From assembly GCA_944383255.1 (NCBI GenBank), contig CALWOY010000035.1:1-48564 (forward strand): a stretch of DNA of 48,564 nucleotides. Reading direction: 5' to 3'. Shown piece after piece: positions 1,702 to 36,661 of this stretch. The first letter of the stretch is position 1; every line of letters starts with the position of its first letter. Both the position numbers and the translations under genes were made by a program. This DNA comes from an uncultured Clostridia bacterium. Its GTDB lineage: Bacteria; Bacillota; Clostridia; Christensenellales; UBA1242. Below the pieces are notes generated by a model, which did no database searches, was not told where the DNA came from, and saw only the letters and a program-made list of their open reading frames with translations.

Positions 1702-1711
1702 AATTTTCTCC

Positions 1712-3034: not shown

Positions 3035-3222
3035 ATTTCCTCCTGTGTACCATATCATACTATTCATAAAATAAAATTTTGTTTTAATTTTATTTATTTC
3101 AAAGGAATATTATAATAGTAGATTTATTAAATGACACATTTTAGTTATAAATATGTCAATAAATATGGTACTATATTCCAAATTTTATGGTATACTTCTA
3201 TGATAAGAGCAGGAGAATATTT

Positions 3223-4666: not shown

Positions 4667-4945
4667 CTATTCTTCTGCTGGTGCATTAGCAAGTTCTTTT
4701 TCATAAGCCTCAATAACTTTTTTGCTGATCATTTCACGTGTTTCAGTGTTGATTGGATGAACTATGTCTTTGAATTCGCCCTCAGGAGTTTTTCTTGATG
4801 GCATTGCAATAAACAATCCGTCAGTTCCACTGATAACCTTGATGTCATGAATTACGAAGCAATCATCAATTGTTATGCTTGCTGCTGCTTTGAGTTTTGA
4901 GTCTTCTTTTTTTACTAGTCTTACTCTAACTTCTGTAATGTTCAT
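4667..4945 (-). CDS. spoVG: septation protein SpoVG
   Basis: [10 protein letters not shown]...[15 protein letters not shown]...[10 protein letters not shown] is the canonical SpoVG sequence. Confidence 0.95.
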
Positions 4946-14371: not shown

Positions 14372-14401
14372 AGTTCATCCTCCTATCCATATCTTGACTG
14401 T

Positions 14402-14431
14402 AGTATACTCCTATTAATAGCATTTTGTCAA
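14402..14431 (-). promoter_or_regulatory. sigma-A type promoter of the 761-aa gene
   Basis: On the minus strand: TTGACA (14431-14426), an 18-nt spacer, then TATACT (14407-14402). Confidence 0.5.
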
Positions 14432-14432
14432 T

Positions 14433-14456
14433 AATTAGTATTCTAATTAGTATTCT
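14433..14456. repeat. perfect tandem duplication of a 12-nt unit AATTAGTATTCT
   Basis: 14433-14444 equals 14445-14456. It sits immediately upstream of the -35 of the minus-strand promoter. Confidence 0.9.
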
Positions 14457-14532
14457 AAAAAGTTTATATAGGTGATATGTTGGCGTCATCTATCCGATAT
14501 AATAAAAAATTGGTCTTTTGATTATAAAATAA

Positions 14533-14560
14533 TTTGTGTATTTTGATTTGTGTATTTTGA
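14533..14560. repeat. perfect tandem duplication of a 14-nt unit TTTGTGTATTTTGA
   Basis: 14533-14546 equals 14547-14560, within the divergent intergenic region. Confidence 0.9.
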
Positions 14561-14719
14561 AAATAAATAAAGATAGAAAAATTAAAATAAAATTTAAATA
14601 AAAATATTTTTATTAAATAAATTTAATAATTTTTTTTTATTTTTATAAAAAAAATAATTTTTGAAAACGATAAAATATTTTGGCGAAATAAAAAATATTT
14701 AAAATGAATTTTAAATTGT

Positions 14720-14748
14720 TTGACTTAAACAGGCGCAAACTATATAAT
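14720..14748 (+). promoter_or_regulatory. near-consensus sigma-A promoter of the giant gene
   Basis: TTGACT (14720-14725), a 17-nt spacer, then TATAAT (14743-14748). It is preceded by ~150 nt of almost pure A/T. Confidence 0.7.
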
Positions 14749-14806
14749 TATTTTGACTAATAATGTAAATAATAAATTAAAGTCGGTTGCTAAGTGGAGA
14801 AATAAT

Positions 14807-23800: not shown

Positions 23801-26227
23801 TCTAAATTCCCAGAAACAGGATCAGATGGCAAGCCAATGTGGCCTGAATATACGATTCAGATAACTCAGTGTTATATTATTGAAGATCAAACCCTTACTA
23901 TAGGTTTACGCCAACTTGATAATAATTCGCAACTTACTGTATATTTTGTAAACCAAGAAAACCATTCTGAGATACGTCGAGCAAATATTTCCTCCGACCA
24001 AAATAAATTGGCTACATTCTCGCTTAGTGAATTAAATGTTATTGATACTGCACGTGGAGAGAAAGTATCTCTTTTAACAAATTCTGAAAAGACAATTGTA
24101 GATGGGCTTTCAGTTAGTCAATTGGCAAATCTTAAAGGAGTGCAATTTACAAATAGCGGCAATGATGACTATATAGGCTCTAGTTATAATTTGACAAAAT
24201 ATATTGCACCTGATGCAGAGTTTATTAAAAGCTCAGATGGTTTAAATATTGATTTTGTAAATGATTCCTTGCAAATAGATGTTTCCTATGCATTTGAAGA
24301 TGGAGTAGCTAAGAAACAATATTTAGATTATCAGGCACCAGTTTGGATAACACTAAAGTATATTGATGTCGATTCTACTTTGGCATATGGAGCAGGAACA
24401 CAAAGAAATGCACAATTGCCTGTGGATTATTTGCAAAATGGTATTCCTATTGAAAATTGGGCAGGTACAACATATAGACCATTTGAATTAATTGCTGGTT
24501 ATACGACTGCAACATCATTTGTGGTAAGCGATGATTCAACATTAAGTGGCAATGTTCAAGATTTAGAATTTGCAATTAGGACTATAGAAGGAGATAGCGA
24601 TTATATTCAAATTGATCATGAAACTGGTTTAATAACATTGAGTGACGAATTTGATATTCGAGCCACCTATATTATCGTTGATATTTATGTGAAATATGGG
24701 GTAGCTGGAGGTGCAGGTTCAAGACTCATTGATAGTGTCAGAGTATATTTCTCTCAACCAGAGAACTCAAAACTCACTATTTCATCAAATACATCTCAAT
24801 TGCCAAAGATTGTCAATCAGGATGATCCATCTTCGTTTTATGTTTCAGTTAAAGATATTCTTCAAATGATAAGTATATCTGATGGTAGCAATGTGTGGTC
24901 TGGAGATGAAATATTAAATGTGTTTAGTGTTTCTGTAGGACTTTATAGTGATCTAAGTCAAGGTACTGATGGAAATTATGAATATACATGGATAACAAAT
25001 CCTGGAGGATTTCGTACAATATTATCACTTGATGATTCACCAATTAATGTTATAAGTGGGAATGATTCATTCAATTTAGTTGTACAGTTAGATAGAAATG
25101 CTGTAACTCAGACTCTATCTTTGACAAATATAAAGATGGTAAACAGCAGATATTCGTCAAACAGTATGGTTTCTAGTTCTTTATATGAGTATTATGGTGC
25201 TTTTGAACCAGGTTTAATATTTAATAGTTTGTTACCTAATTTGGCAGTTAGAAATATTTATGGGTATACAGATTATGGTAGTAAGATATTTAATTTAGAT
25301 GGAGGTGTAGATTATTATGAAACTCTGCAAAATTCAAAAAATCTACAATATAGACTAGTTTCAACACGTGGATTAATTACTACTATTGAATATGTCGTCG
25401 GAGAGAATCTAAGTTCATATAACAGTATAATTTATGGGACTATTACAATAAATATTTATTCTGATGCAGATACAATTATAGGTGAAAAAAATGGAATTGT
25501 TCTTAGTCCAGGGGAAAGCACAGGAAACATTATAAATAGCGATTATTTTGATTTTGGTGCAATGCCTGTATATGGTTATATACGAGAAACTGATGAAACT
25601 AGTATGATAACACAATACCATATTTATATAGATAAAGAAGTGATAAATTCAAATCTAACAGAAACAGATAGTATCTATTTATATCGAAATGGTAATAGTG
25701 TTGGGAATGCCACACTTTCAGGAGGTCAGTCGACATTAAATGGATATAGTTTTTCAATAGATAGCAGTGGTATTAAAATGACATTGCCTTCTGGAGAATA
25801 TACTAACTATATAAATGATATCTTTACAATTGTTGCTTTAAATATATCTTCTGAAACATTATTCACATATTCTTTCTTATTTGATAATATACCTTTTAAC
25901 GCAAGTGAAGAGCAGTCTTTATCTACATATTCAACACAATACCAAGACATTTTCACTTTGCTTGCTGATATAAATGGTATAGATGAAGATGATATTTATG
26001 TTAATGTTGCTAATAATAACAATAGTGAATATGTTTCATTGATAAACAATGCAGGGAATTATTCATTAATATTAAATGATATAAGTTCTGAATCTCCAAT
26101 CCCAGATTCAATAGATATAATTATTGAATTTTATATAACAATTTATAATACTTTAGAATCCACACAGCAAAATATAGTGCTATATAGAAATAATTTAAAT
26201 ATTCAAATAAATAGAGCACAAGATTAA
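14807..26227 (+). CDS. giant (3,806 aa) N-terminally membrane-anchored, acidic, Asn/Ile/Thr/Ser/Tyr-rich surface protein
   Basis: Uninterrupted 11.4-kb ORF. The start was set at ATG 14807 (MKFTTFLKVFAISLAVFVGACGIGVGILAIAGYF), with GGAG 8 nt upstream. The ORF-track TTG at 14753 falls at the predicted transcription start. No LPXTG motif and no tandem repeats were visible by eye. Confidence 0.9.
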   Translation: MKFTTFLKVFAISLAVFVGACGIGVGILAIAGYFSTPQIMPQDLAFDQVEYNVDDDFTITISTTTQDVSETTLTLSLQNGNIITTSDGSVRISDGVISIPQTATIGVPFNVYVETTVHDAECNGEEWITGGHSIITATSQNQQIDSISANVNVDVPVYRVELETRVSSQDENSDVFAVGSSVSTNLKFYPARSAYQYSHDGTDGGEVVYKNTYFMAASSTDENITQQGHTNVFTTSRIGTSTIVGYVFASTPIEERVLLGYQGLDEDAKFAAVLARLEQLASDTLDSDRQAYRANKTIDIVEVTVDSMRLDGGMGNVKVDTLFTLYANNSNIAQASSRSSLGIRLYSSLDQSISLQHELNNVAIRFLYRVGNTYYDAVNNENSAYNVVTIPSYGYGETRQVLVNGATFTYYFPVITSSIDEYYWQFAVTSNVDSNNLCIEVRYFGETAENVEPISVNFSTNSVQDNSIYWSTTNQTLTIIDGETPNLNSLDVKTFAVVPNENLYQRRAYFVVESSDISVEDMIVTTGEAVEYQLGSQTVRLYEIEDGIIQPRTTQAYGRTFDVVFMTIQTDYQGNPKLDEQGRYVIQRYSQDSLNAISTLEVYVNKTLYNLTSNIQTVLTNDELIINAETNDIAYVHNTTAPFEVVLGYSLPASAGQSEQTNEQLIFRNAVLNGEIDIIAKIQDTDSETSIIYSTSSSEQNNGNEFVFSMNIGSLPNNVSARRIKLYVVYDNAAFSTPREDAISTYNDGQQFECIEVYDGSAEIFDFNVNLVEDGAYKSDPENRILVTSDIQSENGYINNIQTTYNYRGNEISEFLFESNGQQIDYSALAVVLEDKYGKKPISSEYVFESSNVSILNIANGILTFNGTGDVELYLKDAEGVIQDTLYFTCQQNGYISQVDQLLERYSGSTASKSSVVVYTYSDRAYDFAPISVQLVGYAGSTISLKSTMAGVVNLISYTYTYNDGQALLTQLMNFSLVNEQDASTLDGFVEFGGQFNNLTYLTILKDFGKPYSLQLRVTVAALGISQVITLNIARDLYLSVDSYGNDYEDEPISIVGNVSYQGVYADSLYQVRIQLNYTIGSGSPDFTLDTSKYSLYIYEYDENGQQIGNRTLVTNSDTPSSIAYIASYTSSTDVQIDNGIGIGREDGSKLTYVYNAYIVFKSFNENNGYRRVMLSLEKNDEQNTAIDALGSLYLYINPNIRVKQDVTDLALDIANSQVDDISYYGRAVLLDNSEQSPLMVYRVVDNSGEVQNISFELDYSKIGFKFVNEEDSNRFYIAREGDGFVLYSLANINNSISLKIILTYDGVDVLTNDGKTYEMQFNLSPNITRNPDSTMWVLYKGEYYLKLVNGEQYTFETILQAFSIKSYGIIDVTPNLDIQSTNNIVVQGQSISIQGVNNNIIDSSFAAIYLNNAIDGRGDSITFKILLLPFDIPYVIYPNTTGEYDLFNLLNIDWVITEELYYTLEGAGLEGTDLLIEEDEVITDGVYGIKYVPGMQLTVRNLDSNDKNIYARFEGTNFITEPVGRDTFVIIEARLNLATNSLVIPYLVQIKKVLDIRTYYPYMTTYSQNSNVSGSDLYSDIDNVTFDMEYLEFNQEGNATIDMLEVFDDTIPNSTNSTSRVVIGRNDNGVFTEQENLPSAVLTFTISEVAYYFFRWETAQNVNQYATIGSGIHGNSVININRDGAQYLRVKVLMTTQNGLEAYYYISVGEIPNLNFTQRTDEGVSSPDIQDISLPAGEGKEIELTGRYNLTMSLNSSSSSTTDANHLLSYYVVPSHIEGHYAWVDYESMTLNAEDTTENWNTQFVFYTKFGALDIVNLYILSNYSIELIDENTSLKYNSAFNIYEVDSGNIIDINNTFKVIKDDGQSEFTTFDEININILTPIEDEIISSTEIDGNDILRVGLVTQDTYVDVLIVFIFTDNGEQVTYNLSMRLRINAIFNVGVINDQPITQMNMLPVTGVSAGSINNLDILAQLFNYTGEADFDLWYQNVIDNNLGSLNVELITQNVFGNFSGQIIQTEDQHYIIELDVSEVAEQTNLAFRISYYNYGSSDDTTFVMASYFNLTLNPNFRIIVNYPTPNTSTISVAESYWFDRSEDAQNTISLNQEADLADATRIVVENLNDQTYEDDIVVRVGLGAEYVYVDNALVGDNYYPLNTDFVISEDQNHSINDNLSLQFGLYYQIIGSQNIYIPVGVYNVVLFNNVYEMLGYNFNSANSTNNLNQPENIYIGTNDDILTKITLTLTVPQDAVLTIDKYLRVTQINGVTAESSYVHLSDGMQGDSIPVYVTLLDLTVSDMSNFVSSDEGVTWAVYQMDAEGQYIQSALTNSEGLSILDKIEVVFESRIQLMYRTVTTFDSQGGMATVSNQNIDFFKVYELLSGTGCSLQEEDITEEREIRKAISINSRNGNSLNEGIEIGTYYILYGFDIEFDTTNIELSTGQNTSILHNGTRGDPDISSSVNYMSLLNMKRTSDKSYYTATDFSSDGLQLSIAADSVTNTATNSQYQNLIHSNTSYLRFTPAMNENGVIYDFNFVAMGSPRETSVTVNLVLTISYGSINKEFTLTFIVSHDYTSETLRNADGTLNSETSRSIIKENFDRFITFAIWGSQTVNENYIFIQHENENQNQAGNIASMFQVSFIQGGQYVTQRPTSSGNYDLAFRFADIAFGNKNVDIVLTDEFGYTITYYVTIVARYNALFTTSLITAFERDTIGLVDKTSQPGNYDHIVSVSFEKRETGIPDFLLTDLDNWEAIFSYNNASGSVTTISYPLVLASDQFYFEIDFIDSLEFSNRVIAGTLTLRSTSNENYEVAVDIPMTIRERYSLVSSDTPYVRDGVAFSLLDVIDVKDNSQNYVVGDRSIKDSYSIYLGFSIKDDEGNELSLDDVSRVLSLRIRAYDVRANEYLFATVPYDIENGYLSIDELFGFEDISNYQFRIEYSITEYEYNDEHLSINNTTTDEAFYYTNSNATQSIYNISYETGNGYKDESNVVTFKNSFYDGLDGSKFPETGSDGKPMWPEYTIQITQCYIIEDQTLTIGLRQLDNNSQLTVYFVNQENHSEIRRANISSDQNKLATFSLSELNVIDTARGEKVSLLTNSEKTIVDGLSVSQLANLKGVQFTNSGNDDYIGSSYNLTKYIAPDAEFIKSSDGLNIDFVNDSLQIDVSYAFEDGVAKKQYLDYQAPVWITLKYIDVDSTLAYGAGTQRNAQLPVDYLQNGIPIENWAGTTYRPFELIAGYTTATSFVVSDDSTLSGNVQDLEFAIRTIEGDSDYIQIDHETGLITLSDEFDIRATYIIVDIYVKYGVAGGAGSRLIDSVRVYFSQPENSKLTISSNTSQLPKIVNQDDPSSFYVSVKDILQMISISDGSNVWSGDEILNVFSVSVGLYSDLSQGTDGNYEYTWITNPGGFRTILSLDDSPINVISGNDSFNLVVQLDRNAVTQTLSLTNIKMVNSRYSSNSMVSSSLYEYYGAFEPGLIFNSLLPNLAVRNIYGYTDYGSKIFNLDGGVDYYETLQNSKNLQYRLVSTRGLITTIEYVVGENLSSYNSIIYGTITINIYSDADTIIGEKNGIVLSPGESTGNIINSDYFDFGAMPVYGYIRETDETSMITQYHIYIDKEVINSNLTETDSIYLYRNGNSVGNATLSGGQSTLNGYSFSIDSSGIKMTLPSGEYTNYINDIFTIVALNISSETLFTYSFLFDNIPFNASEEQSLSTYSTQYQDIFTLLADINGIDEDDIYVNVANNNNSEYVSLINNAGNYSLILNDISSESPIPDSIDIIIEFYITIYNTLESTQQNIVLYRNNLNIQINRAQD

Positions 26228-27805: not shown

Positions 27806-27849
27806 TGGTGACCCCGCCGGGACTCGAACCCAGAACAAAGCCTTAGGAG
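27806..27849 (-). other. displaced 3-prime half of host tRNA-Arg(CCT); island junction containing the core CCTTAGGAG
   Basis: The minus strand reads CTCCTAA GGCTT TGTT CTGGG TTCGAGT CCCGG CGGGGTC A CCA. No matching 5-prime half lies adjacent. Confidence 0.85.
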
Positions 27850-28230
27850 AAAAAACTCCATCCCGATTTCCCGTCAGATAACTTTCAAAACATGCTCAAA
27901 TATTCAGTTATTTTTAAAATCTGTTGATAGTATAATTCGTTTTAATGCGAAATATCAAACGCATCAAATAACTTATGTTCTTTGAGTATGTTTTTTTGTA
28001 TGCTTTTTTCATTAGCCATTTTACCCTTAACTATAAATCTACCCTAAATGAGTTGAGTTCATGTTGAGTTATATTAACTTGAATATCTAGATATAAGCCT
28101 TCTTCGCTCGCAAGTGAAAAAACGATTTTTCGTTTGGCTCGCTCATTGGTTTATAAAAAACAAAACATCTTTTCAGTTAATTAACTTGAATAAAAAGTAA
28201 AACTTCAGGGTTTAAGTTAAGGAGTTAAAA

Positions 28231-29115
28231 ATGAAATCAAACATAATTAAACCAAATGACTTAGTCAAAGTCAAAAAGATTAACAATCATATTATACTAC
28301 AAAACATAACAAATTGCAATAGAAAAGCAAGTATTAAACGAATTTCTGGAAATAGGCATATCAATCTTTCCACTGGCGAGATAGTTGAAAACAAAAAGAC
28401 ACTCATTCGTGGCGAGAGTATGCGTAGCCTACTTGAAAGCAATTTAAGACTACAAGACCTAATCAAAGAGAACACTATTGACATTCAAAAACTACTTTTA
28501 ATCACGCTGACTTATAGAGAGAAAATACTTGACACGAAGGAAATCAACGAAGATTTTAAGGTGTTCATAAAGTATCTCCGTAAGCACTTCACTGAATACG
28601 GCGAAATTGAGTATATAAACACACTTGAAAAGAAAGATGAAAATTCGGGCTTTCACATACATGCAATACTTTTCTTTAACAAATCTACCCGAAGCGTCTT
28701 TCTGCCCGTTCAAACCCTAAATGACGCGTGGAAAAACGGATATACAAGTGTGGGCAAGCCAAAAGGCAAGCAAGAAGTCTATTTCTATCTTACTCCACAC
28801 CTTTCAAAAGAAGTGAACGAGAAGAACAGCCACATGCACAACAAAGCCCTTATGCAAATGCAACTGCCAGCGGGCGTAAATTTATATCACTATTCAAAAG
28901 GAATAAAGAAACCGACAATCTATACCGATACCTACGAGAATGTAAAGAAATATCTCAAAGAAAACTCGTATATCTATGAAAGCGAACAAGTGTATAAAAA
29001 CCCTATGAAAACGTATCGTGGCAATAATCTTTACTACTGCAAAGAGAAATATATAAAAGTGGAAGAACAGCCGAAAGAACCCGACTCAAAACCACGGAAA
29101 CGGATGCCTATATGA
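28231..29115 (+). CDS. HUH-type rolling-circle replication initiator-like protein
   Basis: HUH-like FHIHAILFF motif with downstream Tyr candidates (YFYLTPH, YHYSKG). AAGGAG RBS. Sits next to repeats and a hairpin that could be an origin. Confidence 0.5.
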   Translation: MKSNIIKPNDLVKVKKINNHIILQNITNCNRKASIKRISGNRHINLSTGEIVENKKTLIRGESMRSLLESNLRLQDLIKENTIDIQKLLLITLTYREKILDTKEINEDFKVFIKYLRKHFTEYGEIEYINTLEKKDENSGFHIHAILFFNKSTRSVFLPVQTLNDAWKNGYTSVGKPKGKQEVYFYLTPHLSKEVNEKNSHMHNKALMQMQLPAGVNLYHYSKGIKKPTIYTDTYENVKKYLKENSYIYESEQVYKNPMKTYRGNNLYYCKEKYIKVEEQPKEPDSKPRKRMPI

Positions 29116-29336
29116 TAACTATAAATAGTCATATAATGTAATCATTATATGGCTATATTATTAACACGATTTAAAGCCCTACAAACTCATAACGCAACCG
29201 CAACGACGCTACCTATTCTCAAAATTTTCCCCTAATGTTTAATTTTTTATATAAAGTTAGAGAAAACATATAAATATGCAAATTATTGATTTTTTTTAAG
29301 AAATGTGTTACAATGTTTACAATAAGGGAGAAAAAT

Positions 29337-31121
29337 ATGAAATATAGAAAATTTATAATTCATCAATATAAAGGAATAGAAAATGATTTAGAAATAGATT
29401 TAGATAAGAGCGGATTGCTAGCCTTAATAGGATTAAACGAATGTGGGAAAAGCACAATTCTTAAAGCCATATTATCATTTGATTCATATAACGATAAAAC
29501 TAATAATGAAACTCATCATTTATCTAGATTAAAAAATTATTACAATACAAGGTTACCTGAAAGATTGAAAGTTTCAGCAATAATTAAATTAAGCGATTCG
29601 CCAGAGTTTAAAAATGAAATATTTAATTTTATAGAAAACAACAATTTATATTCTGAATTTGGAATAGAGAGAAACACTAATGAAGATAATACTTTATTAG
29701 AAGAAATTGACATTGAATCTGAAAAGTTTGGAAAACGATATAAATCTTTTTTATCAACTAATCCAATTATTACAAGAGAATATTCACCAAATGGAAGTGT
29801 ATATATTTTTTCCAATGGAAAAATAGATTTATCAGCAACTTATCAAGATGCATTATCCAAAATTATATTAAAATTTCTCCCAATATGTTTATATTTAAAC
29901 GACAAATTAAAAATTGAAGATCATATCACAATAGACAATAACAATACAACCAGTTTTTGGTTTGAAATATTTGATAACCTTTTTCAAAAAGCATGCCACA
30001 AAAAATTAATGCAAGTTGCAAATAATCAAGATGAGTCAGAACAAAAAACTGATTTAAATAGTGTTAATCAATGTTTAGAAAAAGACTTTAATCAAGCTTG
30101 GGCAGAATTAGGAATGGATAGCGAATTTACCAACAAGATTAAGTTATATGTTGACATTAAAAGAGATGTAAATGGTCATAATTATTTAAAAGTTTCAATT
30201 CAAGAGTTAGTTCAAGGAAAACCATCAGAAAACAATTTTGATATAAATGAAAGAAGTGATGGATTTAAGTGGTATTATTCTTTTGTTATGCATTTATTAT
30301 ATAATCCTATATACAAAAACGAATACAATCACAATGTATTATTTTTGTTAGACGAGCCAGGATCTAACTTAAATCCAAAATCTCAAATTGGACTATTAAA
30401 AAGATTCAGTGAGATAATTACAGAGAATGAAAATACTCAGATAATTTATACTACGCATTCTTCATATATGCTATGCAATGAATTCATAAAACCAAACCAA
30501 ATATTAATTGCAAAAAAAGATAAATTAAAATCAATTGTATTATATGACTTAAAGTCTTATCCTAGCAAATATACAAAGCTTAGTGCATTGACCCCATTCT
30601 ATGATAGTTTACAATTGCCATCTACAGATAGGATGATAAAAAATAAAAAAACTATTATAGTTGAAGGAATCCATGACTTTTATGCTATGGAATTATTTTG
30701 TGATCTTGATAAAGATTATGAAATATTCCCATGTTGGGGTGCAACCTCCATTATCAAAAATTTACCATTTTTTTTAATGTGGCATATTCCTTTTGTATAT
30801 ATGGTTGACAACGATAAGGAAGGCGTTGTAAAAGCAAGAAATGAAATTGAAAAACTATATTGTTTAAATAAAGATATTGTTTTGCCTTTTGATGGGTATG
30901 AACAAAATCCAGATGATAAATTCGAAATGGATGATATTTTCAAAGATAAAATAAATGCTTGGGCTCAAAAACTAGGATGTGCAAATTCTTATAGAAGAAT
31001 TATAGAATATATGTATAATAACAAAACAAAACCTAATGTAAAAGAACTATTAAAAGATGAAGATATAAAGCAAAAATTTAATCTTATAAAAGAAAAAATA
31101 TTAGAAAAATTTTGTAGCTAG
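29337..31121 (+). CDS. ABC-type ATPase fused to a TOPRIM/DUF4435-like nuclease domain (OLD-family / fused PARIS-like defence candidate)
   Basis: Walker A GLNECGKST, signature-like RSDGFKWYYSF, Walker B LFLLDEPGSNLNP, H-loop YTTHSS. The C-terminal part has IIVEGIHDFY ... MVDNDKEG (TOPRIM Glu plus DxD). The start was set at ATG 29337, which follows GGGAG. Confidence 0.65.
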   Translation: MKYRKFIIHQYKGIENDLEIDLDKSGLLALIGLNECGKSTILKAILSFDSYNDKTNNETHHLSRLKNYYNTRLPERLKVSAIIKLSDSPEFKNEIFNFIENNNLYSEFGIERNTNEDNTLLEEIDIESEKFGKRYKSFLSTNPIITREYSPNGSVYIFSNGKIDLSATYQDALSKIILKFLPICLYLNDKLKIEDHITIDNNNTTSFWFEIFDNLFQKACHKKLMQVANNQDESEQKTDLNSVNQCLEKDFNQAWAELGMDSEFTNKIKLYVDIKRDVNGHNYLKVSIQELVQGKPSENNFDINERSDGFKWYYSFVMHLLYNPIYKNEYNHNVLFLLDEPGSNLNPKSQIGLLKRFSEIITENENTQIIYTTHSSYMLCNEFIKPNQILIAKKDKLKSIVLYDLKSYPSKYTKLSALTPFYDSLQLPSTDRMIKNKKTIIVEGIHDFYAMELFCDLDKDYEIFPCWGATSIIKNLPFFLMWHIPFVYMVDNDKEGVVKARNEIEKLYCLNKDIVLPFDGYEQNPDDKFEMDDIFKDKINAWAQKLGCANSYRRIIEYMYNNKTKPNVKELLKDEDIKQKFNLIKEKILEKFCS

Positions 31122-31129
31122 TGGTATAA

Positions 31130-31435
31130 CTATGAATTTTCCAAAATCTTAGTGATAGAGTCTTTTATTTCGGGTTTCGCTTTTTGAAGAAGAGAGATAA
31201 TATGTTTATCTTTCTTATACTGATGTATATCATAGTAGAAAAATTCTTCAAGTGAAGAATTGCAGGCTTCCGCTATATCATTTATAACCGAAATTGAAGG
31301 CTCAAAATTCTTACGATATTCAAGTCGGTTTATATACGCCTCGTTTTTACCAATTCTAAGGCTCAATTCCCTTGCTGACAAGCCTTCACGGGTGCGCAAC
31401 TGACTTATTCGATTTATAATTTCGTTTAATTCCAT
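31130..31435 (-). CDS. XRE-family helix-turn-helix regulator
   Basis: RISQLRTREGLSARELSLRIGKNEAYINRLE is a classic HTH_3 pattern. Confidence 0.8.
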   Translation of the reverse strand: MELNEIINRISQLRTREGLSARELSLRIGKNEAYINRLEYRKNFEPSISVINDIAEACNSSLEEFFYYDIHQYKKDKHIISLLQKAKPEIKDSITKILENS

Positions 31436-31472
31436 AGCAGATACTCCTTATAAATATTGTATCTGCTTTTTT
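31436..31472 (+). terminator. plus-strand intrinsic terminator whose complement is the 5-prime UTR hairpin of the XRE gene
   Basis: AGCAGATAC (31436-31444) pairs with GTATCTGCT (31459-31467), with a T-run to 31472. The loop holds the AAGGAG RBS of the minus-strand gene. Confidence 0.6.
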
Positions 31473-31599
31473 ATTTTTTATAATAGGACGGGTTATCTCA
31501 ATATGAACAAAAAAGTATATAAAATATAGATAAATAAGTCTATATTTCTTGCTTTTTATGATTTTTTAGGGTATAATATGTTTATCGTAGGAGGTAAAA

Positions 31600-32925
31600 A
31601 TGAAAAAAGTTAGTGTTCTATTTAGTTTATTATTAGTTTTATGTTTAGGTTTTACATTAGTGGGCTGTGGAGAAAAACAATCAAATGAACCAGAGGAGCC
31701 AGCATATACCACTTTAACACTAGATGAAACAAATGACTTTATAAACAATGCAAAGTTTAGTGCTAAACACTGGAACTCTGTTTTACATAACAGAAAAATA
31801 GAGAGTGGAACCGCTTCCATTTTGATTACAAAAAACACTCAAAATGGAGCGAACTATGTTGAAATCGCAAGTCCAATTTATAATGAATACGAAATTTCAC
31901 AGGTATGCATAGACGGACAAACTTATAATTATGTTGATGAAACACCCGTTTTTATTGGCGAAGAACAAATGGACTGGGATTCATTATTTTTAGGTATGGA
32001 TGAAACATTATCACAATTTAAGAACATTAATGGGCTTGCAGAAATGTATGACTTTATTGACACAAAAAAATATGTAAATGAGTCAAATTATGAATTACAT
32101 ATCACATTCAATATAGGCGAGCCAAATGTTGAAATGATGGGTGCTGATGCTATAACTATTCGTGTTCGCTTTAATACAAATAATCTATTTGACGGAATGG
32201 GCGCTTATCTTTATTTTGAAAATGAGTATGTGGGAGAAATAAGTTTTTATAACTACACCGATCCATACACAACACCTGAATGGTTTGATGTCCACGATTT
32301 TGACGATATAACCTTACAAGAAGGAACAAATAAGTTAAATTTTGAAGAGTTATCAAGTAGTTTTTCAAGAATGAATTTCAGTATGAATGATTGGAAAGGA
32401 ATTAGTTATGCTTTAAGTAATGACGAACAACTGCTTACATTTGGAAATTTATGGCAAGCGACTGAAAATGGCGAAAACTATATGATAAGAATAATTGAAA
32501 ATGGAATAGAACAAAGACAATTTTGTAAGGATGGAATAAATTATGTTTATAATGGCTCTGTTGCAAGTGAAATAACAACAGCACAATTTTCATTTAGTGC
32601 AATGCTTAATGGGGCTAATAAAGAAGTTTTAATTTTTAGTGATTTGGAAACCGTAATAACAAAACTACCTTTTGTGAGTGCATCAGTATTTCTTACTTTG
32701 GACGGATATATTTATGATATAACCTTTGACGCAAGTTCTATTGAATCGGTTAATGCAGAAACTTTATGCTTACATTTAGAATTTGATATTAAAGGAAATT
32801 TACAAGGATATGAACAAAGTTATATGGTTGGAAATCAAAGTATAATATCGACAAGGTTTTTTAAAAATTTAGAACAAATGTCTACTCCAGATTGGTTTGA
32901 TATCAATGACTTTCAAAATTTATAA
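31600..32925 (+). CDS. lipoprotein with an internal two-fold duplication
   Basis: Signal peptide with lipobox LVGC (MKKVSVLFSLLLVLCLGFTLVGCGEK). Both halves end in TPEWFDVHDF / TPDWFDINDF. The promoter is TTGCTT, a 17-nt spacer, then TATAAT (31572-31577). Confidence 0.8.
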   Translation: MKKVSVLFSLLLVLCLGFTLVGCGEKQSNEPEEPAYTTLTLDETNDFINNAKFSAKHWNSVLHNRKIESGTASILITKNTQNGANYVEIASPIYNEYEISQVCIDGQTYNYVDETPVFIGEEQMDWDSLFLGMDETLSQFKNINGLAEMYDFIDTKKYVNESNYELHITFNIGEPNVEMMGADAITIRVRFNTNNLFDGMGAYLYFENEYVGEISFYNYTDPYTTPEWFDVHDFDDITLQEGTNKLNFEELSSSFSRMNFSMNDWKGISYALSNDEQLLTFGNLWQATENGENYMIRIIENGIEQRQFCKDGINYVYNGSVASEITTAQFSFSAMLNGANKEVLIFSDLETVITKLPFVSASVFLTLDGYIYDITFDASSIESVNAETLCLHLEFDIKGNLQGYEQSYMVGNQSIISTRFFKNLEQMSTPDWFDINDFQNL

Positions 32926-32976
32926 TACACAATAAAAAGAAGAAATCTCCGTTATAGTTTTATAAGGAGATTTTTT

Positions 32977-33237
32977 ATGTTGTATTTATTTGATAAAAAC
33001 GGAAGAAGAATAGGTTATATAAAAGTAGACGGACATGTGTCTTTCTGCTTTGATAGTCAAGACAGGCAGATAGGAAGAATGACAGAAAGCGGAAACTATA
33101 TTTTTCTATATAATGGAAGCGGTAAACTTCTTGCAAGTTTTAATGGCAGACACACATACGACAGCCATAGCAATTTAATAGGAAAAGGCAACTTAATTTA
33201 TAATATTCTATACCCAGCACTTGCAGAAATACGCTGA
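32977..33237 (+). CDS. small hypothetical protein with repeated G-x-x-I/L-G beta-hairpin-like units
   Basis: The ORF follows the lipoprotein gene. Pattern: NGRRIGY..DRQIGR..SGKLLAS..SNLIGKG. No confident family assignment. Confidence 0.45.
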   Translation: MLYLFDKNGRRIGYIKVDGHVSFCFDSQDRQIGRMTESGNYIFLYNGSGKLLASFNGRHTYDSHSNLIGKGNLIYNILYPALAEIR

Positions 33238-33301
33238 CTTATATCTCAAAGGCTTTCAAATAGGCTTGGAAGCGGTAAAAAGCATTCTCTCGGTAAATTT
33301 A

Positions 33302-34018
33302 TTATTCTTCTACCCCATATATCTCAATATAATCTTTAACCGCTTTTTTCACTGCATCTGTTTGTGTTTCGTCTTGCACTTTTTTAAAGATAGATCTAGC
33401 CATTTTTTGTAGTTCATAATAAACACTATCTTCATTTGTTTCACATTTATCGAAATATTTTTCCATATTTCCATTGTATAATGCTTGATATATTTTTTTA
33501 TCATCTCTATTTCTTGAATTTTTAAAAGAAGCATTACGAAAATTCTCCAAAGACTCATCAAATTCTTTATTAGTTTTTTTAATTTTTTCAAACGCAGAAC
33601 TTATACATGATAAACAACTTCTAAAATTAGAATCATTTAATAAATATTTTAATGCATAAATTTCTTCTTCTTTCATTACTGGACAATTAGTAAAGTTAAA
33701 ATCATTTTTTAATGAATTGAGAGTATCTAATATAAGCACTAATTCTTCATATTTATAATCTAATAATGATAAATCATTTTTATTATCAACGGGAAGTATT
33801 TTAAGAAATGGTATATTAAATTTGATATTTTTCTTTTTTGATTCTATTCTACAAATATTCCAATAATTAAATATCGTTAAAAATGGCAAGTTATTACCTT
33901 CTTTTTCATAGTTCTGCAATGTTCTAGTTGAAACGCCAAGTAATTTCGCCATTTTTTCTTGTGATAATTTTGCATACAATCGGCAATGCTGTAAATATTC
34001 AGCCACATGGTCTTTCAT
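33302..34018 (-). CDS. HTH (XRE-like) N-terminal domain regulator with a ~170-aa C-terminal domain
   Basis: AKLSQEKMAKLLGVSTRTLQNYEKE is the HTH. A GAGG RBS is present. Confidence 0.7.
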   Translation of the reverse strand: MKDHVAEYLQHCRLYAKLSQEKMAKLLGVSTRTLQNYEKEGNNLPFLTIFNYWNICRIESKKKNIKFNIPFLKILPVDNKNDLSLLDYKYEELVLILDTLNSLKNDFNFTNCPVMKEEEIYALKYLLNDSNFRSCLSCISSAFEKIKKTNKEFDESLENFRNASFKNSRNRDDKKIYQALYNGNMEKYFDKCETNEDSVYYELQKMARSIFKKVQDETQTDAVKKAVKDYIEIYGVEE

Positions 34019-34032
34019 AATTTCCTCTTTTA

Positions 34033-34060
34033 AACACGAATAAATACTTCGTGTTTTTTT
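34033..34060 (+). terminator. plus-strand intrinsic terminator located in the 5-prime UTR region of the minus-strand HTH gene
   Basis: AACACGAA (34033-34040) pairs with TTCGTGTT (34048-34055), with a T-run to 34060. Confidence 0.6.
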
Positions 34061-34228
34061 ATTATAGCATATCTAAAACAATTTTCACACAATAATTCAG
34101 TAAAAAAATTGAATTAGTGTTAAAAACATGACATTATATTAGCGTTGCAACATATATACGCCTTTTTTAGGGAAAATGGTTGGTTTTTCTATTTTGATAA
34201 GGCATGATAATTAAAGGAGGTGATGACT

Positions 34229-34423
34229 ATGTATCGCACTATCAGCGAAACGCTAGATATCATTAAGAGTTTAGATAAAAATACATCTATAACTCTTTAC
34301 TATCTTAGATGTTTATGTAAAAGCGGTCAAATTCAAGTGCTGAATGCTGGCGGTAAGATTTTAATTAACTTAAAAAGTTTAGGAGAGTTCTTACAACTTG
34401 ATTTAACTAAAAATATTGATTAA
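34229..34423 (+). CDS. small DNA-binding, excisionase-like protein
   Basis: AAGGAGG at 34214-34220, 8 nt before ATG 34229. It is a small protein just upstream of the integrase. The product call is an inference from position and size. Confidence 0.45.
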   Translation: MYRTISETLDIIKSLDKNTSITLYYLRCLCKSGQIQVLNAGGKILINLKSLGEFLQLDLTKNID

Positions 34424-34437
34424 AAGGAGATTGTAAA

Positions 34438-34737
34438 ATGGATGTTTTAGAAAAAATCATTGAAAAACTAGATATACCTAGATATTACTCATATAATGGC
34501 TTTTATGAGATAGGTATATCTGACACCCTAGAACTGCATATTTTATGCAAAAACTCCATGAATGGCAAGTATAAATATCATAAGAAATATATTTCTAATA
34601 ATAAAAGATTAAAAGGCGAAGAGTTTAATGAATGGCTAAGAGAAGAACTCTATAAATTCATTAAGTTAAAAACACAGGGAATTTATTATTTCGTTCCTTA
34701 TGAAGTAAGGGAGGCTGAAAATGGCGACGATATATAA
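34438..34737 (+). CDS. hypothetical protein overlapping the integrase start
   Basis: AAGGAG RBS. It overlaps the integrase gene by 17 nt. Confidence 0.6.
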   Translation: MDVLEKIIEKLDIPRYYSYNGFYEIGISDTLELHILCKNSMNGKYKYHKKYISNNKRLKGEEFNEWLREELYKFIKLKTQGIYYFVPYEVREAENGDDI

Positions 34738-36106
34738 ACGCCCATTGAAGAATGGAAAGATAAATTACGCCATTCAAATCAAGGTTAAAGGTGCGGACGG
34801 ACGGTCAAAGTTCGTTTGCACCACTTGGAAGAATGAGAATAATCTTTCGGGTGTGCGTGCTGAAAAGGCTGCCACTGCATTCGCTGAGCAATGGGAACGA
34901 GAGTATCGTGAAGGTCATATTCACGAACTCTCTATGGCTACCTTTGAACAGGTTGCAAATGTTTGGCTGAACACTAGGAAATACAACATGTCAGATAACT
35001 ATTATCTGCGTGCTGTTGAGTGCATAAAAAGAATATCAAAATTTTTTGGAAATAAAAGGTTTGTCGATTTGAAGGCTTTTGATATTCAACAGTTTTTTGT
35101 AAATATGAACGAGAGTCTTTATAAGGTTTCAAGGGCTAAAATCAAGCCAAATAAAGCGGTCGAATTTGACGAGTTAGTGAAAGCGTATGGGGTTAAGAAA
35201 GCGAGCCGAGAAAGTAGTTTCAACCGCCCTACGCTATATTATGCCCGAAAAGGCGAAATGATAGAGTTAAATTCTGCAAAACTTATCTGCGAATTCTTTA
35301 ATCTTAACACCTTTGAGTATTTTGATAAAATTACAATTGAAAAGCATTATCGAAAAGAAACTATAATGAAATACAAGCGAGTTTTAAGCACGATTTATAA
35401 CTATGCTATGTCTATTGAACTTGTAAATCGAAACTATGCTACAAGTGCCTATCTTAAAAATGTTATAGGTGGCGAGCCGTCCAAGGAGATAGAAATTTTA
35501 ACTCATGAAGAGTTTGATAACTTTATGAAAGTCTTAGATAGAGAAGAAGATGTTTGGAAAATCATTCCGCTTTATATCTTGGCGACCACTGGAATAAGGA
35601 CTTGTGAATTGTGCGGACTTGAATGGCAAGATATAGACCTTGAAAATCGCTTGATAAAGATTAGAAGAAACCGTCTTTATATCAATAATAAAGGAGTTAT
35701 TACGAAAGAGTTAAAGACGAAGTATTCTAAACGAACCTTGCATATCTGCAATAGGCTTTATGATAAACTTGTGCAGTTTAAAGAGTTGTATGATAGGTTA
35801 AAAGAAAATGATAAAAAGTTTGATAAGTGCGGTGCTATCTTTTGTAATCTTGACGGCACACCACGCTTTCCGCACTATCTAAATAAACTACTCAAAACTT
35901 ATCTTATGAAAGCGGGCTGTAAAAAGGTGTCGTGTCATAAGATAAGGCACACATGGATAACGAGAATGGTCAGTCAAGGCGTGCCTGTGAATGTTGTATC
36001 AAAACTTGCGGGACACGCTAACAGTGATATAACACTTAAAATTTACACGCACTATTGCCAAGATATAGATAACTCAATAGATGCTATGGAAAAAATCTTT
36101 GCATAA
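34721..36106 (+). CDS. tyrosine site-specific integrase
   Basis: GGGAGG RBS. N-terminal arm-binding-like region. Catalytic signature TGIRTCEL ... HKIRHTW ... GHANSDITLKIYTHY. Confidence 0.9.
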   Translation: MATIYKRPLKNGKINYAIQIKVKGADGRSKFVCTTWKNENNLSGVRAEKAATAFAEQWEREYREGHIHELSMATFEQVANVWLNTRKYNMSDNYYLRAVECIKRISKFFGNKRFVDLKAFDIQQFFVNMNESLYKVSRAKIKPNKAVEFDELVKAYGVKKASRESSFNRPTLYYARKGEMIELNSAKLICEFFNLNTFEYFDKITIEKHYRKETIMKYKRVLSTIYNYAMSIELVNRNYATSAYLKNVIGGEPSKEIEILTHEEFDNFMKVLDREEDVWKIIPLYILATTGIRTCELCGLEWQDIDLENRLIKIRRNRLYINNKGVITKELKTKYSKRTLHICNRLYDKLVQFKELYDRLKENDKKFDKCGAIFCNLDGTPRFPHYLNKLLKTYLMKAGCKKVSCHKIRHTWITRMVSQGVPVNVVSKLAGHANSDITLKIYTHYCQDIDNSIDAMEKIFA

Positions 36107-36370
36107 AAAAATGGTAGGTCAAAAAGCCTACCATTGATAATATTCGGAGTATTGCGGATTTGCACCGCACAACACACAACACAACAATACTTAACAGGCT
36201 TGATAATAAATTCTTAATACTCCGAGTGTGTTGGTGTTAATTCTCGATTTATTATTCTTCATACTAATCACCTCCAACATTAAAGTTTCTAATTCTAATA
36301 CGGATATTAAAATTGGTTGAGTTTGTAAAAGTATGTTGAGAATTAAAATCAAACCATTAAGTATTGCTAT

Positions 36371-36447
36371 TGGTGTTCCCGCCCGGACTCTAACCGGGAA
36401 TCTTCGCCTTAGGAGGGCGCTGCGTTATACAGTTACGCCACGAGAAC
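36371..36447 (-). tRNA. island-borne tRNA-Arg(CCT), 77 nt, non-canonical elbow
   Basis: The minus strand reads GTTCTCG TG GCGT AACTGTATA ACGC A GCGCC CTCCTAA GGCGA AGATT CCCGG TTAGAGT CCGGG CGGGAAC A CCA. The D-loop has GT instead of GG and the T-loop has TTA instead of TTC. Confidence 0.8.
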
Positions 36448-36553
36448 ATATAAATATTATTAAATTTTAGGGGTAAAAATGGCGAAAGTATGGTTTTTTG
36501 AAAGTTGTGGCATTTTGAGATTTTCTGAATAGCCCTATTTTAAAGGGATTCAG

Positions 36554-36621
36554 GGCTCTCGCGATTCGGGTAAGACAAGCCCTTAGGAGGGCTCCGTAAT
36601 ATCCAGTTTTACTACGAGATC
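36554..36621 (-). other. 5-prime half of host tRNA-Arg(CCT) fused to an island-derived tail lacking a T-arm (chimeric tRNA-like remnant)
   Basis: The minus strand reads GATCTCG TA GTAA AACTGGATA TTAC G GAGCC CTCCTAA, then GGGCT, 16 nt, and CGAGAGC. The acceptor stem pairs at 6 of 7 positions. The anticodon stem is broken and there is no T-arm. Confidence 0.8.
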
Positions 36622-36632
36622 AAAACAAGGAA

Positions 36633-36661
36633 AGTATAGCATATTACATAAAATATTGCAA
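36633..36661 (-). promoter_or_regulatory. sigma-A type promoter of the (now split) tRNA-Arg gene
   Basis: On the minus strand: TTGCAA (36661-36656), a 17-nt spacer, then TATACT (36638-36633), 11 nt before the tRNA 5-prime end. Confidence 0.6.

Follow-up and report, generated by a model that had tools for sequence, protein, structure and literature searches.

Organization of the locus

The window analyzed here is the whole stretch of 48,564 nucleotides from an uncultured Clostridia bacterium (contig CALWOY010000035.1). On its minus strand, a host tRNA-Arg(CCT) gene is split into two halves. The orphan 5′ half on the attL side, GATCTCGTAGTAAAACTGGATATTACGGAGCC (36590..36621, read 36621->36590), consists of the acceptor strand, the D-arm, and the 5′ anticodon stem. 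The displaced 3′ half on the attR side, CTCCTAAGGCTTTGTTCTGGGTTCGAGTCCCGGCGGGGTCACCA (27806..27849, read 27849->27806), comprises the anticodon loop, the 3′ anticodon stem, the variable loop, the T-arm, the 3′ acceptor strand, and CCA. This split had been proposed in a sequence-only reading of the DNA, and both sequences were confirmed at these coordinates and on this strand. When the two segments were joined, as that reading had suggested, ARAGORN called the resulting 76-mer as a tRNA-Arg(CCT). In their present state, no tRNA was found by ARAGORN at attL or attR, which agrees with the claim that neither half folds with its present neighbour.

A single insertion of 8,740 bp separates the halves, with the 9-bp core CTCCTAAGG at its bounds. 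The core corresponds to the 7-nt anticodon loop plus 2 nt and lies at 27841..27849 in attR and at 36581..36589 in attL (minus strand). As had been noticed before, both junctions share it; it turned out to be the sole identical block between attL and attR. The attP sequence diverges 9 bp into the site, and no tRNA is regenerated. Upstream of the orphan 5′ half, a promoter-like site, TTGCAA-17-TATACT with TG (36633..36661, minus strand), is retained from the host tRNA gene. Comparable sites lie upstream of the host halves in L010, L013, L017, L022, L030, L036, and L065, although all these calls come from consensus pattern matching and such matches occur at background frequency.

It was found that the island carries a complete tRNA-Arg(CCT) of its own (B; 77 nt; 36371..36447, read 36447->36371; minus strand), which was called by ARAGORN and scored 55.8 bits against the Rfam tRNA model (gathering score 29). 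It lies between int and attL, at 142 nt inside attL, and reads in the same direction as the destroyed host gene and the promoter-like site. It is 73% identical to the host tRNA, and a third copy of the core (36407-36415) forms its anticodon loop. The sequence-only reading listed neither this tRNA nor the third core; it was right about the split but incomplete. Across 20 distinct island tRNAs, the stems pair at 416 of 420 positions (99%), and compensatory changes were seen in 19 of the 21 stem pairs. At its elbow, the island tRNA unusually has T at position 19 and A at position 56, and its anticodon stem is topped by a G-A.

The right arm of attP (36448..36580, minus strand) is the spacer that separates the core from the island tRNA. 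An alignment of 11 spacers and a motif search located in it the conserved block CCATACTTTCGCCAT (36479-36493) and AACTTTCAAAA (36496-36506), the latter being inverted relative to 27880-27890. No terminator-like hairpin was found in this arm, nor in 25 of the 28 spacers of the island family. The left arm (27850..28230, minus strand) is non-coding and contains TTTTGAAAGTT (27880-27890), two CATAC motifs (27980-28003), and the direct repeat TATTCAAGTTAAT (28073-28085 and 28180-28192). The blocks conserved in a left-arm alignment of seven islands are candidate arm-type Int or accessory-factor sites.

Genes of the island

The first gene of the island (28231..29115, plus strand) encodes a rolling-circle replication initiator, Rep (Pfam REP_ORF2-G2P, E 1.6e-13; PHROG rolling-circle initiator). 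It is about 30% identical to the Rep proteins of cryptic plasmids of 1.5-2.5 kb of Firmicutes, and its match to Microviridae VP4 is weaker. The next gene (29286..31121, plus strand) encodes an ABC-type ATPase (Pfam AAA_15 and AAA_21) fused to an OLD-like TOPRIM domain, whose Pfam match is weak and under the cut-off (16.9 against 23.2 bits). This defence-like cargo matched AriA (9e-24) and AriAB (1.4e-12) in PADLOC, as well as Old and GajA. The slot is variable, since sister islands (L091, L086, and L088) have other genes there. A Cro/CI-type HTH regulator of 101 aa (31130..31435, minus strand; Pfam HTH_3, 3.6e-8; PHROG transcriptional repressor or regulator) is followed by further cargo, a putative lipoprotein of 441 aa (31600..32925, plus strand). 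The latter has a lipoprotein-type signal sequence at its N-terminus, where weak, sub-threshold NCBIfam lipoprotein matches also lie, and no family was found for it in Pfam or PHROGs. An 86-aa protein (32977..33237, plus strand) has tblastn homologues in L007, L010, L013, and L016, and its beta-flower matches were sub-threshold.

The 238-aa protein with N-terminal HTH matches (33302..34018, minus strand) is encoded divergently from the xis-int operon and is a candidate island repressor. Just upstream of int lies a gene for a small winged-helix protein resembling Xis (34220..34423, plus strand; likely start ATG at 34229), which is kept beside int in relatives. No family match was found for the protein in Pfam, PHROGs, or NCBIfam. 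Its best AF2 model has a pLDDT of 92, while the remaining four models have 54 or lower. The full-length fold resembles BldC and the mycobacteriophage Pukovnik Xis (TM 0.6-0.74; not statistically significant), so that the predicted Xis-like identity is weakly supported. A 99-aa protein (34438..34737, plus strand), an ORF overlapping the int start, is conserved in L007 and likewise matched no family in the three databases. The last gene encodes a lambda-like tyrosine integrase of 461 aa with an N-terminal SAM-like domain (34721..36106, plus strand; Pfam Phage_integrase, 3.4e-27, and Phage_int_SAM_3). An alignment of 20 homologues shows no variation at its catalytic residues R293, H406, R409, H432, and Y442. 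Thus, the gene list of the sequence-only reading largely held: Rep, the ATPase-TOPRIM protein, the two HTH regulators, and the integrase were supported, while the lipoprotein and the Xis-like protein stay putative.

Empty sites and the family of related islands

Is the split seen against an intact gene? Four independent assemblies that belong to the same species but lack the island (L001, L002, L107, and L108) have an uninterrupted tRNA gene 100% identical to the joined halves, its 3′ part being the same sequence as the displaced 3′ half. Thus, the split tRNA is not due to chance. The intact gene lies just downstream of cls in all four, with the lipid kinase gene on its other side in L001, L107, and L108, where the sequence-only reading had proposed to look for it; the upstream flank of L002 differs. 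L001 is 99.9% identical to the window on either side of the island and is missing precisely 27850-36580. Everything between the halves is therefore one insertion, as had been claimed.

In 32 of the 80 loci encoding integrase homologues, a tRNA-Arg(CCT) lies downstream of int and is convergent with it. A copy of the loop core lies 138-210 nt upstream of the carried tRNA in 27 of these 32, whose integrases are 26-99% identical, and a tRNA 5′ half precedes the core in all of the 27 but L009 and L018. The hosts of this family are gut Clostridia. The identical block of attL and attR, 9 bp here, is 7-13 bp in nine other complete islands. Comparison of the ten islands narrows the exchange region to the 7-nt anticodon loop CTCCTAA. 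The crossover is thus in the anticodon loop of the host tRNA, where the sequence-only reading had placed it, and the host gene is left unrepaired.

A sub-branch (L040 and L041) splits a tRNA-Thr(CGT) gene and carries a tRNA-Thr(CGT); therefore, the carried tRNA tracks the target. In the distant relatives L061, L080, and L083, the target tRNA is rebuilt in the classical way, and no separate tRNA copy with an orphan 5′ half upstream was found in them. Near-identical copies of the island (99.4-99.9%) abut three different host 5′ halves, in the window, L092, and L093. The divergence among them begins exactly at the core, where the host flanks of L092 and L093 part from that of the window at attL. 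Copies at least 99.4% identical in three host contexts point to probable transfer between hosts. In the nested locus L016, a younger island lies inside the tRNA carried by an older island with its own int; the older island's tRNA itself became a target and was replaced in turn.

Proposed mechanism and rival explanations

Taken together, the segment 27850-36580 is very probably an integrative element of about 8.7 kb that splits the host tRNA-Arg(CCT) gene and compensates with its own complete tRNA-Arg(CCT). In this account, the integrase carried out an exchange between the core of attP, CTCCTAAGG, and the anticodon loop of the host gene, which lies between cls and the DAGK-type lipid kinase gene. 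The attP has only the loop (7 nt plus 2) in common with the tRNA and no usable 3′ half, so that the host gene ended as two dead halves, the 5′ half in attL and the 3′ half in attR. Lying downstream of the retained, predicted host tRNA promoter and reading in the same direction, the island tRNA could take over. Its expression may come from a weak promoter of its own, from read-through out of the host promoter, or from both, and it would be charged and needed by the host. Excision would restore the host tRNA gene exactly and might be followed by rolling-circle replication of the element. A scan of JGI metagenomes for the excised circle or its attP junction gave 0 hits, and the 7-9 kb contigs are not circular. 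Since no chimeric tRNA must fold, the element would need only a conserved anticodon loop and stem, and it can therefore enter hosts with differing tRNA-Arg(CCT) bodies.

It may be asked whether 36371-36447 is instead the regenerated target of a classical island, made of the host 5′ half and an island 3′ half, with the half at 36621 an older relic. tRNA islands as a rule regenerate their target, as outlined in the Islander account (PMC4383910) and as seen in L061, L080, and L083, and an artificial join of the 5′ half of the island tRNA and the distal 3′ half was also accepted by ARAGORN. However, the empty site of L001 has neither the island nor either half of the island tRNA nor the 133-nt spacer, and its intact gene consists of the halves at 36621 and 27849. 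Moreover, acceptor position 2:71 is T-A in the island tRNA but A-T in the host tRNA, and thus each tRNA is self-consistent; the island tRNA and its spacer also accompany the island into other hosts. The empty-site comparison refutes classical regeneration here, which is hardly credible any longer. The chance that the split arose only in assembly, through a chimeric join across a repeated mobile element, is close to nil. Contigs built through shared islands can be chimeric, and the mismatched 5′ and 3′ halves of the related MAG loci L015 and L019 suggest such joins. In the window, however, the two halves agree with one another and with the intact gene, island-free contigs show 99.9% identity to both flanks, and the junctions were assembled independently from different samples (attR in L003 and L004; attL in L089 and L090).

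Another reading accepts the disruption but takes the host tRNA loss as neutral, the island tRNA serving escape from tRNA-cleaving defence or supply for a rare codon. Mobile-element tRNAs have been proposed as a counter to tRNA-degrading defences (PMC10865867, discussion), and the island itself encodes the AriA/OLD-like ATPase-TOPRIM protein. AGG, at 4.4 per 1000 codons, belongs to the minority codons, and the loss could be harmless if the host had a second tRNA-Arg(CCT) or read AGG with tRNA-Arg(UCU). AGG accounts for 15% of the host Arg codons; thus, tRNA-Arg(CCT) is in use. This share and the strong structural conservation of the island tRNAs are indirect evidence that integrants may need the island tRNA. 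Against neutrality, the carried tRNA corresponds to the disrupted isoacceptor throughout (Arg(CCT) in the 27 loci with an upstream core, Thr(CGT) in 2, these being all the cases seen), it always adjoins attP and is co-oriented with the destroyed gene, and in L016 the older island's tRNA was targeted and then replaced. This reading is therefore quite unlikely. Instead of a plasmid-like integrative mobilizable element, the island might also be a phage satellite or a provirus of the filamentous or micro-phage-like kind; this question of element class leaves the tRNA mechanism unaffected. Its Rep belongs to the ORF2/G2P family common to inoviruses, plectroviruses, and Microviridae VP4, and its 7-9 kb size, int-xis-repressor layout, and defence cargo resemble phage satellites. 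However, searches of Pfam, PHROGs, and NCBIfam revealed no genes of the capsid, coat, Zot-like, terminase, or lysis type, the best Rep matches are tiny rolling-circle plasmids, and IMG/VR holds no close integrase relatives. A satellite or provirus is an unlikely alternative. Returning to the element that splits and compensates, the cell would not be left without tRNA-Arg(CCT), because the island carries a complete one. The system is very probably a disrupt-and-replace design, not a simple gene disruption.

Comparison with known systems

Integrative and mobilizable elements (IMEs) of Firmicutes, reportedly treated by Guedon et al. in 2017, are small and encode a tyrosine integrase, an excisionase, and a rolling-circle-type replication or mobilisation protein. 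They often reside in tRNA genes and have accessory cargo. The present island likewise has its own integration/excision module, the integrase and the weakly supported Xis-like protein. No relaxase family was matched in it, the rolling-circle Rep being the only such protein, and no oriT was identified. IMEs that combine loss of their tRNA target with a carried substitute are not known, and a full-text literature search turned up none. As for phage satellites of the PICI type, no homologues of terS, ppi, cpm, or capsid genes were found by Pfam, PHROGs, and NCBIfam, three ORFs being unannotated. The cargo at 29286-31121 is a candidate for PARIS or OLD-family defence, with the AriA match in PADLOC but the TOPRIM match under the cut-off.

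As in classical tRNA islands, the tyrosine integrase adjoins the tRNA-proximal junction, the crossover is in a 7-nt anticodon loop flanked by the stem, and a displaced 3′ fragment lies at the far end. Sublocation classes for integration in tRNA genes were reportedly defined by Williams in 2002. In classical islands, attP holds the 3′ part of the tRNA and the gene is regenerated, according to the Islander account (PMC4383910). In contrast, attP lacks the 3′ portion of the target here, and there is no intact gene at either junction. For prophage Lj965 of Lactobacillus johnsonii (Ventura et al. 2003-2004), a Firmicute, it is reported, in the citation of PMC10865867, that the tRNA is not rebuilt at the junction and that the prophage encodes the cognate tRNA. 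Unlike the islands, Lj965 is a prophage and, in that account, a single case not analyzed as a system.

The system matches tRNA-dependent lysogeny of the Fionnbharth/K4, Cluster L, CQ2, DL, and Gaia/X actinobacteriophages (Guerrero-Bustamante and Hatfull, mBio 2024, PMC10865867), a mechanism demonstrated experimentally in mycobacteriophages. Both systems have a tyrosine integrase and an attB overlapping a tRNA gene, which is proven here by the empty sites. The common core is short (8-17 bp in the phages; 9 bp here and 7-13 bp in the family), attL and attR both lack a functional tRNA, and the element tRNA, here 36371-36447, has the anticodon of the disrupted gene. Both also have relatives that possess a related integrase but restore the tRNA and bring no copy of their own, and in both a new target isotype can come with a matching carried tRNA. 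Arg(CCT) and Thr(CGT) are targeted here, Lys, Ile2, or Leu there, and the hosts are gut Clostridia instead of Actinobacteria. The island tRNAs always lie at a distance of 138-210 nt from the core, point the same way as the destroyed gene, and follow the predicted host promoter, whereas the Fionnbharth tRNA overlaps gene 37 at another place in the genome and is served by a promoter of its own, which has been demonstrated (PMC10865867). The present element, an island of 8.7 kb, has a rolling-circle Rep of the plasmid type, and no virion, packaging, or lysis genes were found in it by Pfam, PHROGs, and NCBIfam; it works like the phage tRNA-dependent system, yet it is not a prophage. A split-and-replace strategy demonstrated so far only for some actinobacterial phages is seen here in small non-phage islands of gut Clostridia.

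A host tRNA gene split by an island with its own tRNA

The minus strand of the window carries two segments that the sequence-only reading took for the halves of one tRNA-Arg(CCT). The 5′ half (36621->36590; GATCTCGTAGTAAAACTGGATATTACGGAGCC) comprises the acceptor strand, the D-arm, and the 5′ strand of the anticodon stem, while the 3′ half (27849->27806; CTCCTAAGGCTTTGTTCTGGGTTCGAGTCCCGGCGGGGTCACCA) comprises the loop, the 3′ stem, the variable loop, the T-arm, the acceptor strand, and CCA. When joined in silico, they were recognized by ARAGORN as a 76-nt tRNA-Arg(CCT), and neither existing junction yields a tRNA. The 9-bp core CTCCTAAGG (27841-27849 and 36581-36589), which that reading had noted, is the sole identical block between the junctions. 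Is everything between the halves one single insertion, as was claimed? I located island-free contigs of the same species through the cls protein of the window, whose gene also occurs on other metagenome contigs; the lipid kinase protein, looked up as an exact sequence, gave no match, probably because of a different start call. One of these contigs, L001, lacks exactly window 27850-36580; the insertion is one single element of 8,740 bp. On either flank, L001 and the window are 99.9% identical. In L001, the cls gene runs straight to the lipid kinase gene, and an intact tRNA-Arg(CCT) lies at the join point. The uninterrupted gene expected in relatives is present in L001, L002, L107, and L108, each time 100% identical to the joined halves, and none of these island-free relatives has separated halves.

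The island, in turn, has a complete and distinct tRNA-Arg(CCT), here called B, at 36447->36371 on the minus strand. It was found by both ARAGORN and Rfam (55.8 bits against a gathering score of 29), and lies between the end of the integrase gene (36106) and attL, the junction with the host 5′ half, 142 nt from the core. Two other accounts of this arrangement were rejected. One was an assembly chimera, with the contig joined through a repeated mobile element, but both filled junctions were assembled independently elsewhere (attR, the junction with the host 3′ half, in L003 and L004; attL in L089 and L090), and the flanks of L001 are nearly identical to those of the window. Thus, the split is real, recent, and polymorphic within one species. 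B might otherwise be a hybrid regenerated from host and island sequences. However, B is missing from the empty site in L001 and therefore belongs to the island; it is only 73% identical to the host tRNA, and its stems are self-consistent, with T-A at acceptor position 2:71 where the host tRNA has A-T. The host gene has been destroyed and a cognate tRNA gene supplied by the island, which the host would presumably need.

B has some unusual residues. Its D-loop (AACTGTATA) has T in place of G at position 19, and its T-loop (TTAGAGT) has A in place of C at position 56. The G19-C56 elbow pair is near-universal in tRNAs, and B looks like a case in which a covarying U19-A56 pair replaces it. In addition, the anticodon stem has a G-A at its top.

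How could B be transcribed? Upstream of the orphan half, the promoter-like site of the host tRNA is still in place (TTGCAA-17-TATACT with TG, 36661->36633). Between this site and B, the window has no terminator-like hairpin, and 25 of 28 family spacers have none either. A strong promoter of its own is not supported for B, the one candidate being a 9-of-12 match of a kind found at background frequency. These observations make read-through from the host promoter a plausible route of transcription. B would presumably be expressed, charged, and necessary. AGG occurs in host genes at 4.4 per 1000 codons, or 15% of Arg codons.

Variation around the locus

The surroundings of the split gene also vary. 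L002 (11607-12515) has the intact tRNA-Arg(CCT) and cls, but a wholly different upstream flank. Where the lipid kinase gene would be, it has the C-terminal part of an ORF fragment (154 aa, minus strand) that by eye resembles the end of an isoleucyl-tRNA synthetase; this peptide has no match in the window. The difference reflects either a scaffold chimera or a strain rearrangement whose breakpoint coincides exactly with the 5′ end of the tRNA. A conspecific strain, L108, carries a type II-A CRISPR-Cas locus (Cas9, Cas1, Cas2, and Csn2; 12796-18867) inserted between the lipid kinase gene and the tRNA-Asn/amidase genes, which marks the region around the tRNAs as a hot spot of variation. In a sister species whose cls is 91% identical (L111-L114), the tRNA-Arg(CCT), lipid kinase, and amidase genes are all missing from the locus and tRNA-Asn directly follows cls. 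Immediately upstream of cls, the window has a 3,824-aa ORF (14753-26227, plus strand) that is conserved in L002, L107, L108, and L111 (3,794-3,812 aa) and has no Pfam match at E<=0.001.

Gene content of the island

The Rep protein of the island belongs to Pfam REP_ORF2-G2P and shares about 30% identity with the Rep proteins of small (1.5-2.5 kb) cryptic rolling-circle plasmids from Firmicutes; it also matches Microviridae VP4, more weakly. A 611-aa ABC-type ATPase (29286-31121) has a weak OLD-like TOPRIM domain and was matched by PADLOC to AriA (9e-24) and also to AriAB, Old, and GajA. The remaining genes encode two HTH proteins, a putative 441-aa lipoprotein, an 86-aa protein, a 99-aa ORF, a putative 67-aa winged-helix protein just upstream of the integrase gene, and the integrase itself, a 461-aa tyrosine recombinase. 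Across 20 homologues of the integrase, the catalytic R, H-x-x-R, H, and Y do not vary. Pfam, PHROGs, and NCBIfam gave no match for the 67-aa protein or the 99-aa protein. One confident AF2 model of the 67-aa protein resembles BldC and the Xis of mycobacteriophage Pukovnik over its full length, a likeness that is suggestive though not statistically significant. A ~31-bp indel breaks the ATPase gene in L003, one of the contigs with a filled attR.

Sister islands with the same integrase differ in the slot after Rep. A KAP NTPase (1406-2686) is found there in L091, a 648-aa AAA_15 protein (1374-3320) in L086, and Nmad3 plus a Glug protein (1777-4237) in L088. I read this position as a variable slot with putative defence-like cargo. 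The Rep protein might suggest an inovirus-like provirus. This was rejected, since no virion, packaging, lysis, or relaxase genes were detected in the island with Pfam, PHROGs, and NCBIfam. A profile scan of IMG/VR found no close members of the integrase family, only distant partial matches (<=29%). The element is probably a plasmid-like integrative island, probably mobilizable.

Distribution of the split layout among related integrases

Is this layout an oddity of one contig? A profile built from 20 integrase homologues gave 80 loci from species-representative genomes, all of them from uncultured Clostridia, Christensenellales, Oscillospiraceae, or similar gut/rumen MAGs; the comparative loci are metagenome assemblies throughout. 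In 32 of the 80, a tRNA-Arg(CCT) lies downstream of the integrase gene, convergent with it every time, and 27 of these 32 have a second anticodon-loop core 138-210 nt upstream of the tRNA. This core is preceded by a recognisable tRNA 5′ half and followed by non-tRNA DNA in 25 of the 27 (the exceptions being L009 and L018), a result to be read against a synthetic-partner test that passes 34% of random 34-mers. Both ends are present in ten loci, where the orphan 5′ half and the distal 3′ half join as a tRNA-Arg(CCT). These ten complete islands are 3.6-13 kb in size, with an identical block of 7-13 bp and host and island tRNAs that are 61-81% identical. Core positions 8-9 differ between attL and attR in L010, L014, L016, and L017, so strand exchange is confined to the 7-nt loop CTCCTAA. 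When the stems of 20 distinct island tRNAs were parsed from the sequence ends, 416 of 420 positions were paired and 19 of 21 pairs had compensatory changes, a pattern indicating that the island tRNAs are under selection.

In a sub-branch (L040 and L041), tRNA-Thr(CGT) takes the place of tRNA-Arg(CCT) in this layout. A Thr 5′ half stands there as an orphan, followed by the loop TTCGTAA, a 186-nt spacer, and a complete tRNA-Thr(CGT). More distant relatives, L061 (Trp), L080 (Thr), and L083 (Met), are classical, with an intact tRNA at attL and a duplicated 3′ half. The disrupt-and-replace layout is thus a conserved family trait.

Some loci depart from this scheme. At least L015 and L019 have mismatched halves: the acceptor and anticodon strands of the orphan 5′ half do not pair with those of the distal one. 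These MAG contigs are likely chimeras with a join through a shared island, or else they contain tandem arrays that were not resolved. L008, whose integrase is 97% identical, has an island-type tRNA (2694-2770) merely 62 nt after the integrase gene and no core within 300 nt upstream of it, the sole exception among the 12 closest loci; it may have arisen by deletion or by recombination between two cores. In L009, a second, different integrative element (13148-17249), with a 488-aa integrase (14345-15811, minus strand), an Xis-like 85-aa protein, and a 280-aa ORF, abuts the island core where the host 5′ half was expected; two elements seem to have accumulated in tandem at a single tRNA. L042 has a degenerate tRNA-Arg-like remnant without an anticodon loop (GCTTCCTTAGTTAAATGGATATAACAGGGCTAATTGTGGGTTCG...) upstream of 4815, about 100 nt upstream of its orphan 5′ half.

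Attachment sites and recent spread

Several arm blocks are conserved even between islands whose integrases share only 45-50% identity: two CATAC motifs in the left arm (27980-28003), CCATACTTTCGCCAT in the right arm (36479-36493), and TTTTGAAAGTT (27880-27890), which recurs inverted as AACTTTCAAAA at 36496-36506. By analogy with lambda-like systems, they are candidate arm-type sites for the integrase and accessory proteins. In L013, L015, and L016, the first ~16 nt after the core (CTCCTAAGGCTTTGTT) still match the tRNA 3′ stem and variable loop, suggesting that attP descends from a classical attP bearing a 3′ half that has since decayed. Excision would give the circle junction ...GGAGTTTTTT-CTCCTAAGG-GCTTGTC.... 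The attP junction pattern GAGTTTTTTCTCCTAAGGGCTTGTCTTACC had 0 matches in JGI metagenomes. Contigs of 8.5-9.4 kb with integrase homologues (L086-L088) showed neither a terminal overlap nor an excised circle. Those of L086 and L087 hold integrated copies, and that of L088 ends 40 nt past the island tRNA.

Two further copies of the island, in L092 and L093, are 99.9% and 99.4% identical to that of the window and diverge from it exactly at the core. They abut different host 5′ halves (GTTCTCATAGTTCAATGGATAGAACAGTTGC and GACCTCATAGTAAAACTGGATATTACGGTCCC, respectively), which correspond to the host types in L006 and L007, two genomes of separate species. Thus, the same island has recently entered at least three different tRNA-Arg(CCT) genes. 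These genes differ in the acceptor and anticodon stems, which would constrain a design relying on a host/island chimeric tRNA, but does not constrain the present one.

Nested islands and possible serial replacement

L016 has three tiers of tRNA sequence. The oldest 5′ half (12641->12610) comes first, with a loop and a 176-nt spacer behind it; next come a second 5′ half (12465->12434), a core, and a 150-nt spacer; the third tier is a complete island tRNA (12283->12209). A 3′ half matching the second tRNA lies at 4890, with a second xis-int pair just past it; the integrase of this pair shares 32% identity with that of the window. Together, these features indicate that a younger island was inserted into the tRNA of an older one. 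Judging from this nested case, a host tRNA gene seems open to horizontal replacement by mobile elements.

It is possible, if somewhat doubtful, that such islands are serial replacers, each insertion silencing the resident tRNA-Arg(CCT) while the island copy is expressed by read-through. Each integration would put the island tRNA directly behind the host tRNA promoter. Since island-borne tRNAs are themselves valid attB sites, later islands would overwrite earlier ones, and a decayed island would leave its tRNA as the only tRNA-Arg(CCT) of the cell. Serial replacement would explain why a tRNA that belongs to the host in one lineage is island-borne in another: the T19/A56 type of B is the host-type gene in L013, and the host tRNA of L017 nearly equals the island tRNA of L013. 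These likenesses fit serial horizontal replacement but do not prove it. If true, a mobile element would be turning over a translation gene horizontally.

Comparison with known systems

Standard island finders assume that the tRNA is regenerated, and so will mis-place or miss such elements and label the island tRNA as the host gene. The compact int-attP-tRNA module (~1.9 kb in the window from the integrase start to the core, with core, arm, and tRNA within ~220 bp) could be used as a cassette for integration in gut Firmicutes that are hard to manipulate.

A comparable strategy, 'tRNA-dependent lysogeny', has been described and experimentally tested in actinobacteriophages (PMC10865867). In those systems, common cores span 8-17 bp, the tRNA is not rebuilt, and a cognate phage tRNA is required; relatives with related integrases rebuild the tRNA gene (PMC10865867). 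The authors raise the question of how widespread the strategy is beyond actinobacteriophages, and the one case they cite is Lj965, a prophage of Lactobacillus johnsonii (PMC10865867). Full-text literature searches turned up no account of such a design in Clostridia or in non-phage islands. The island has three of the features that define tRNA-dependent lysogeny and lacks that of being a temperate phage. It follows the logic of the phages; it differs in element class and host phylum, and in having its tRNA stereotypically placed next to attP. The island family adds evidence of cross-species spread and nested replacement. A wider host range would follow because no chimeric tRNA must fold, and near-identical islands are indeed found in three host tRNA sequences. 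A mechanism described in 2024 only for actinobacteriophages is thereby extended to small plasmid-like islands and to gut Clostridia.
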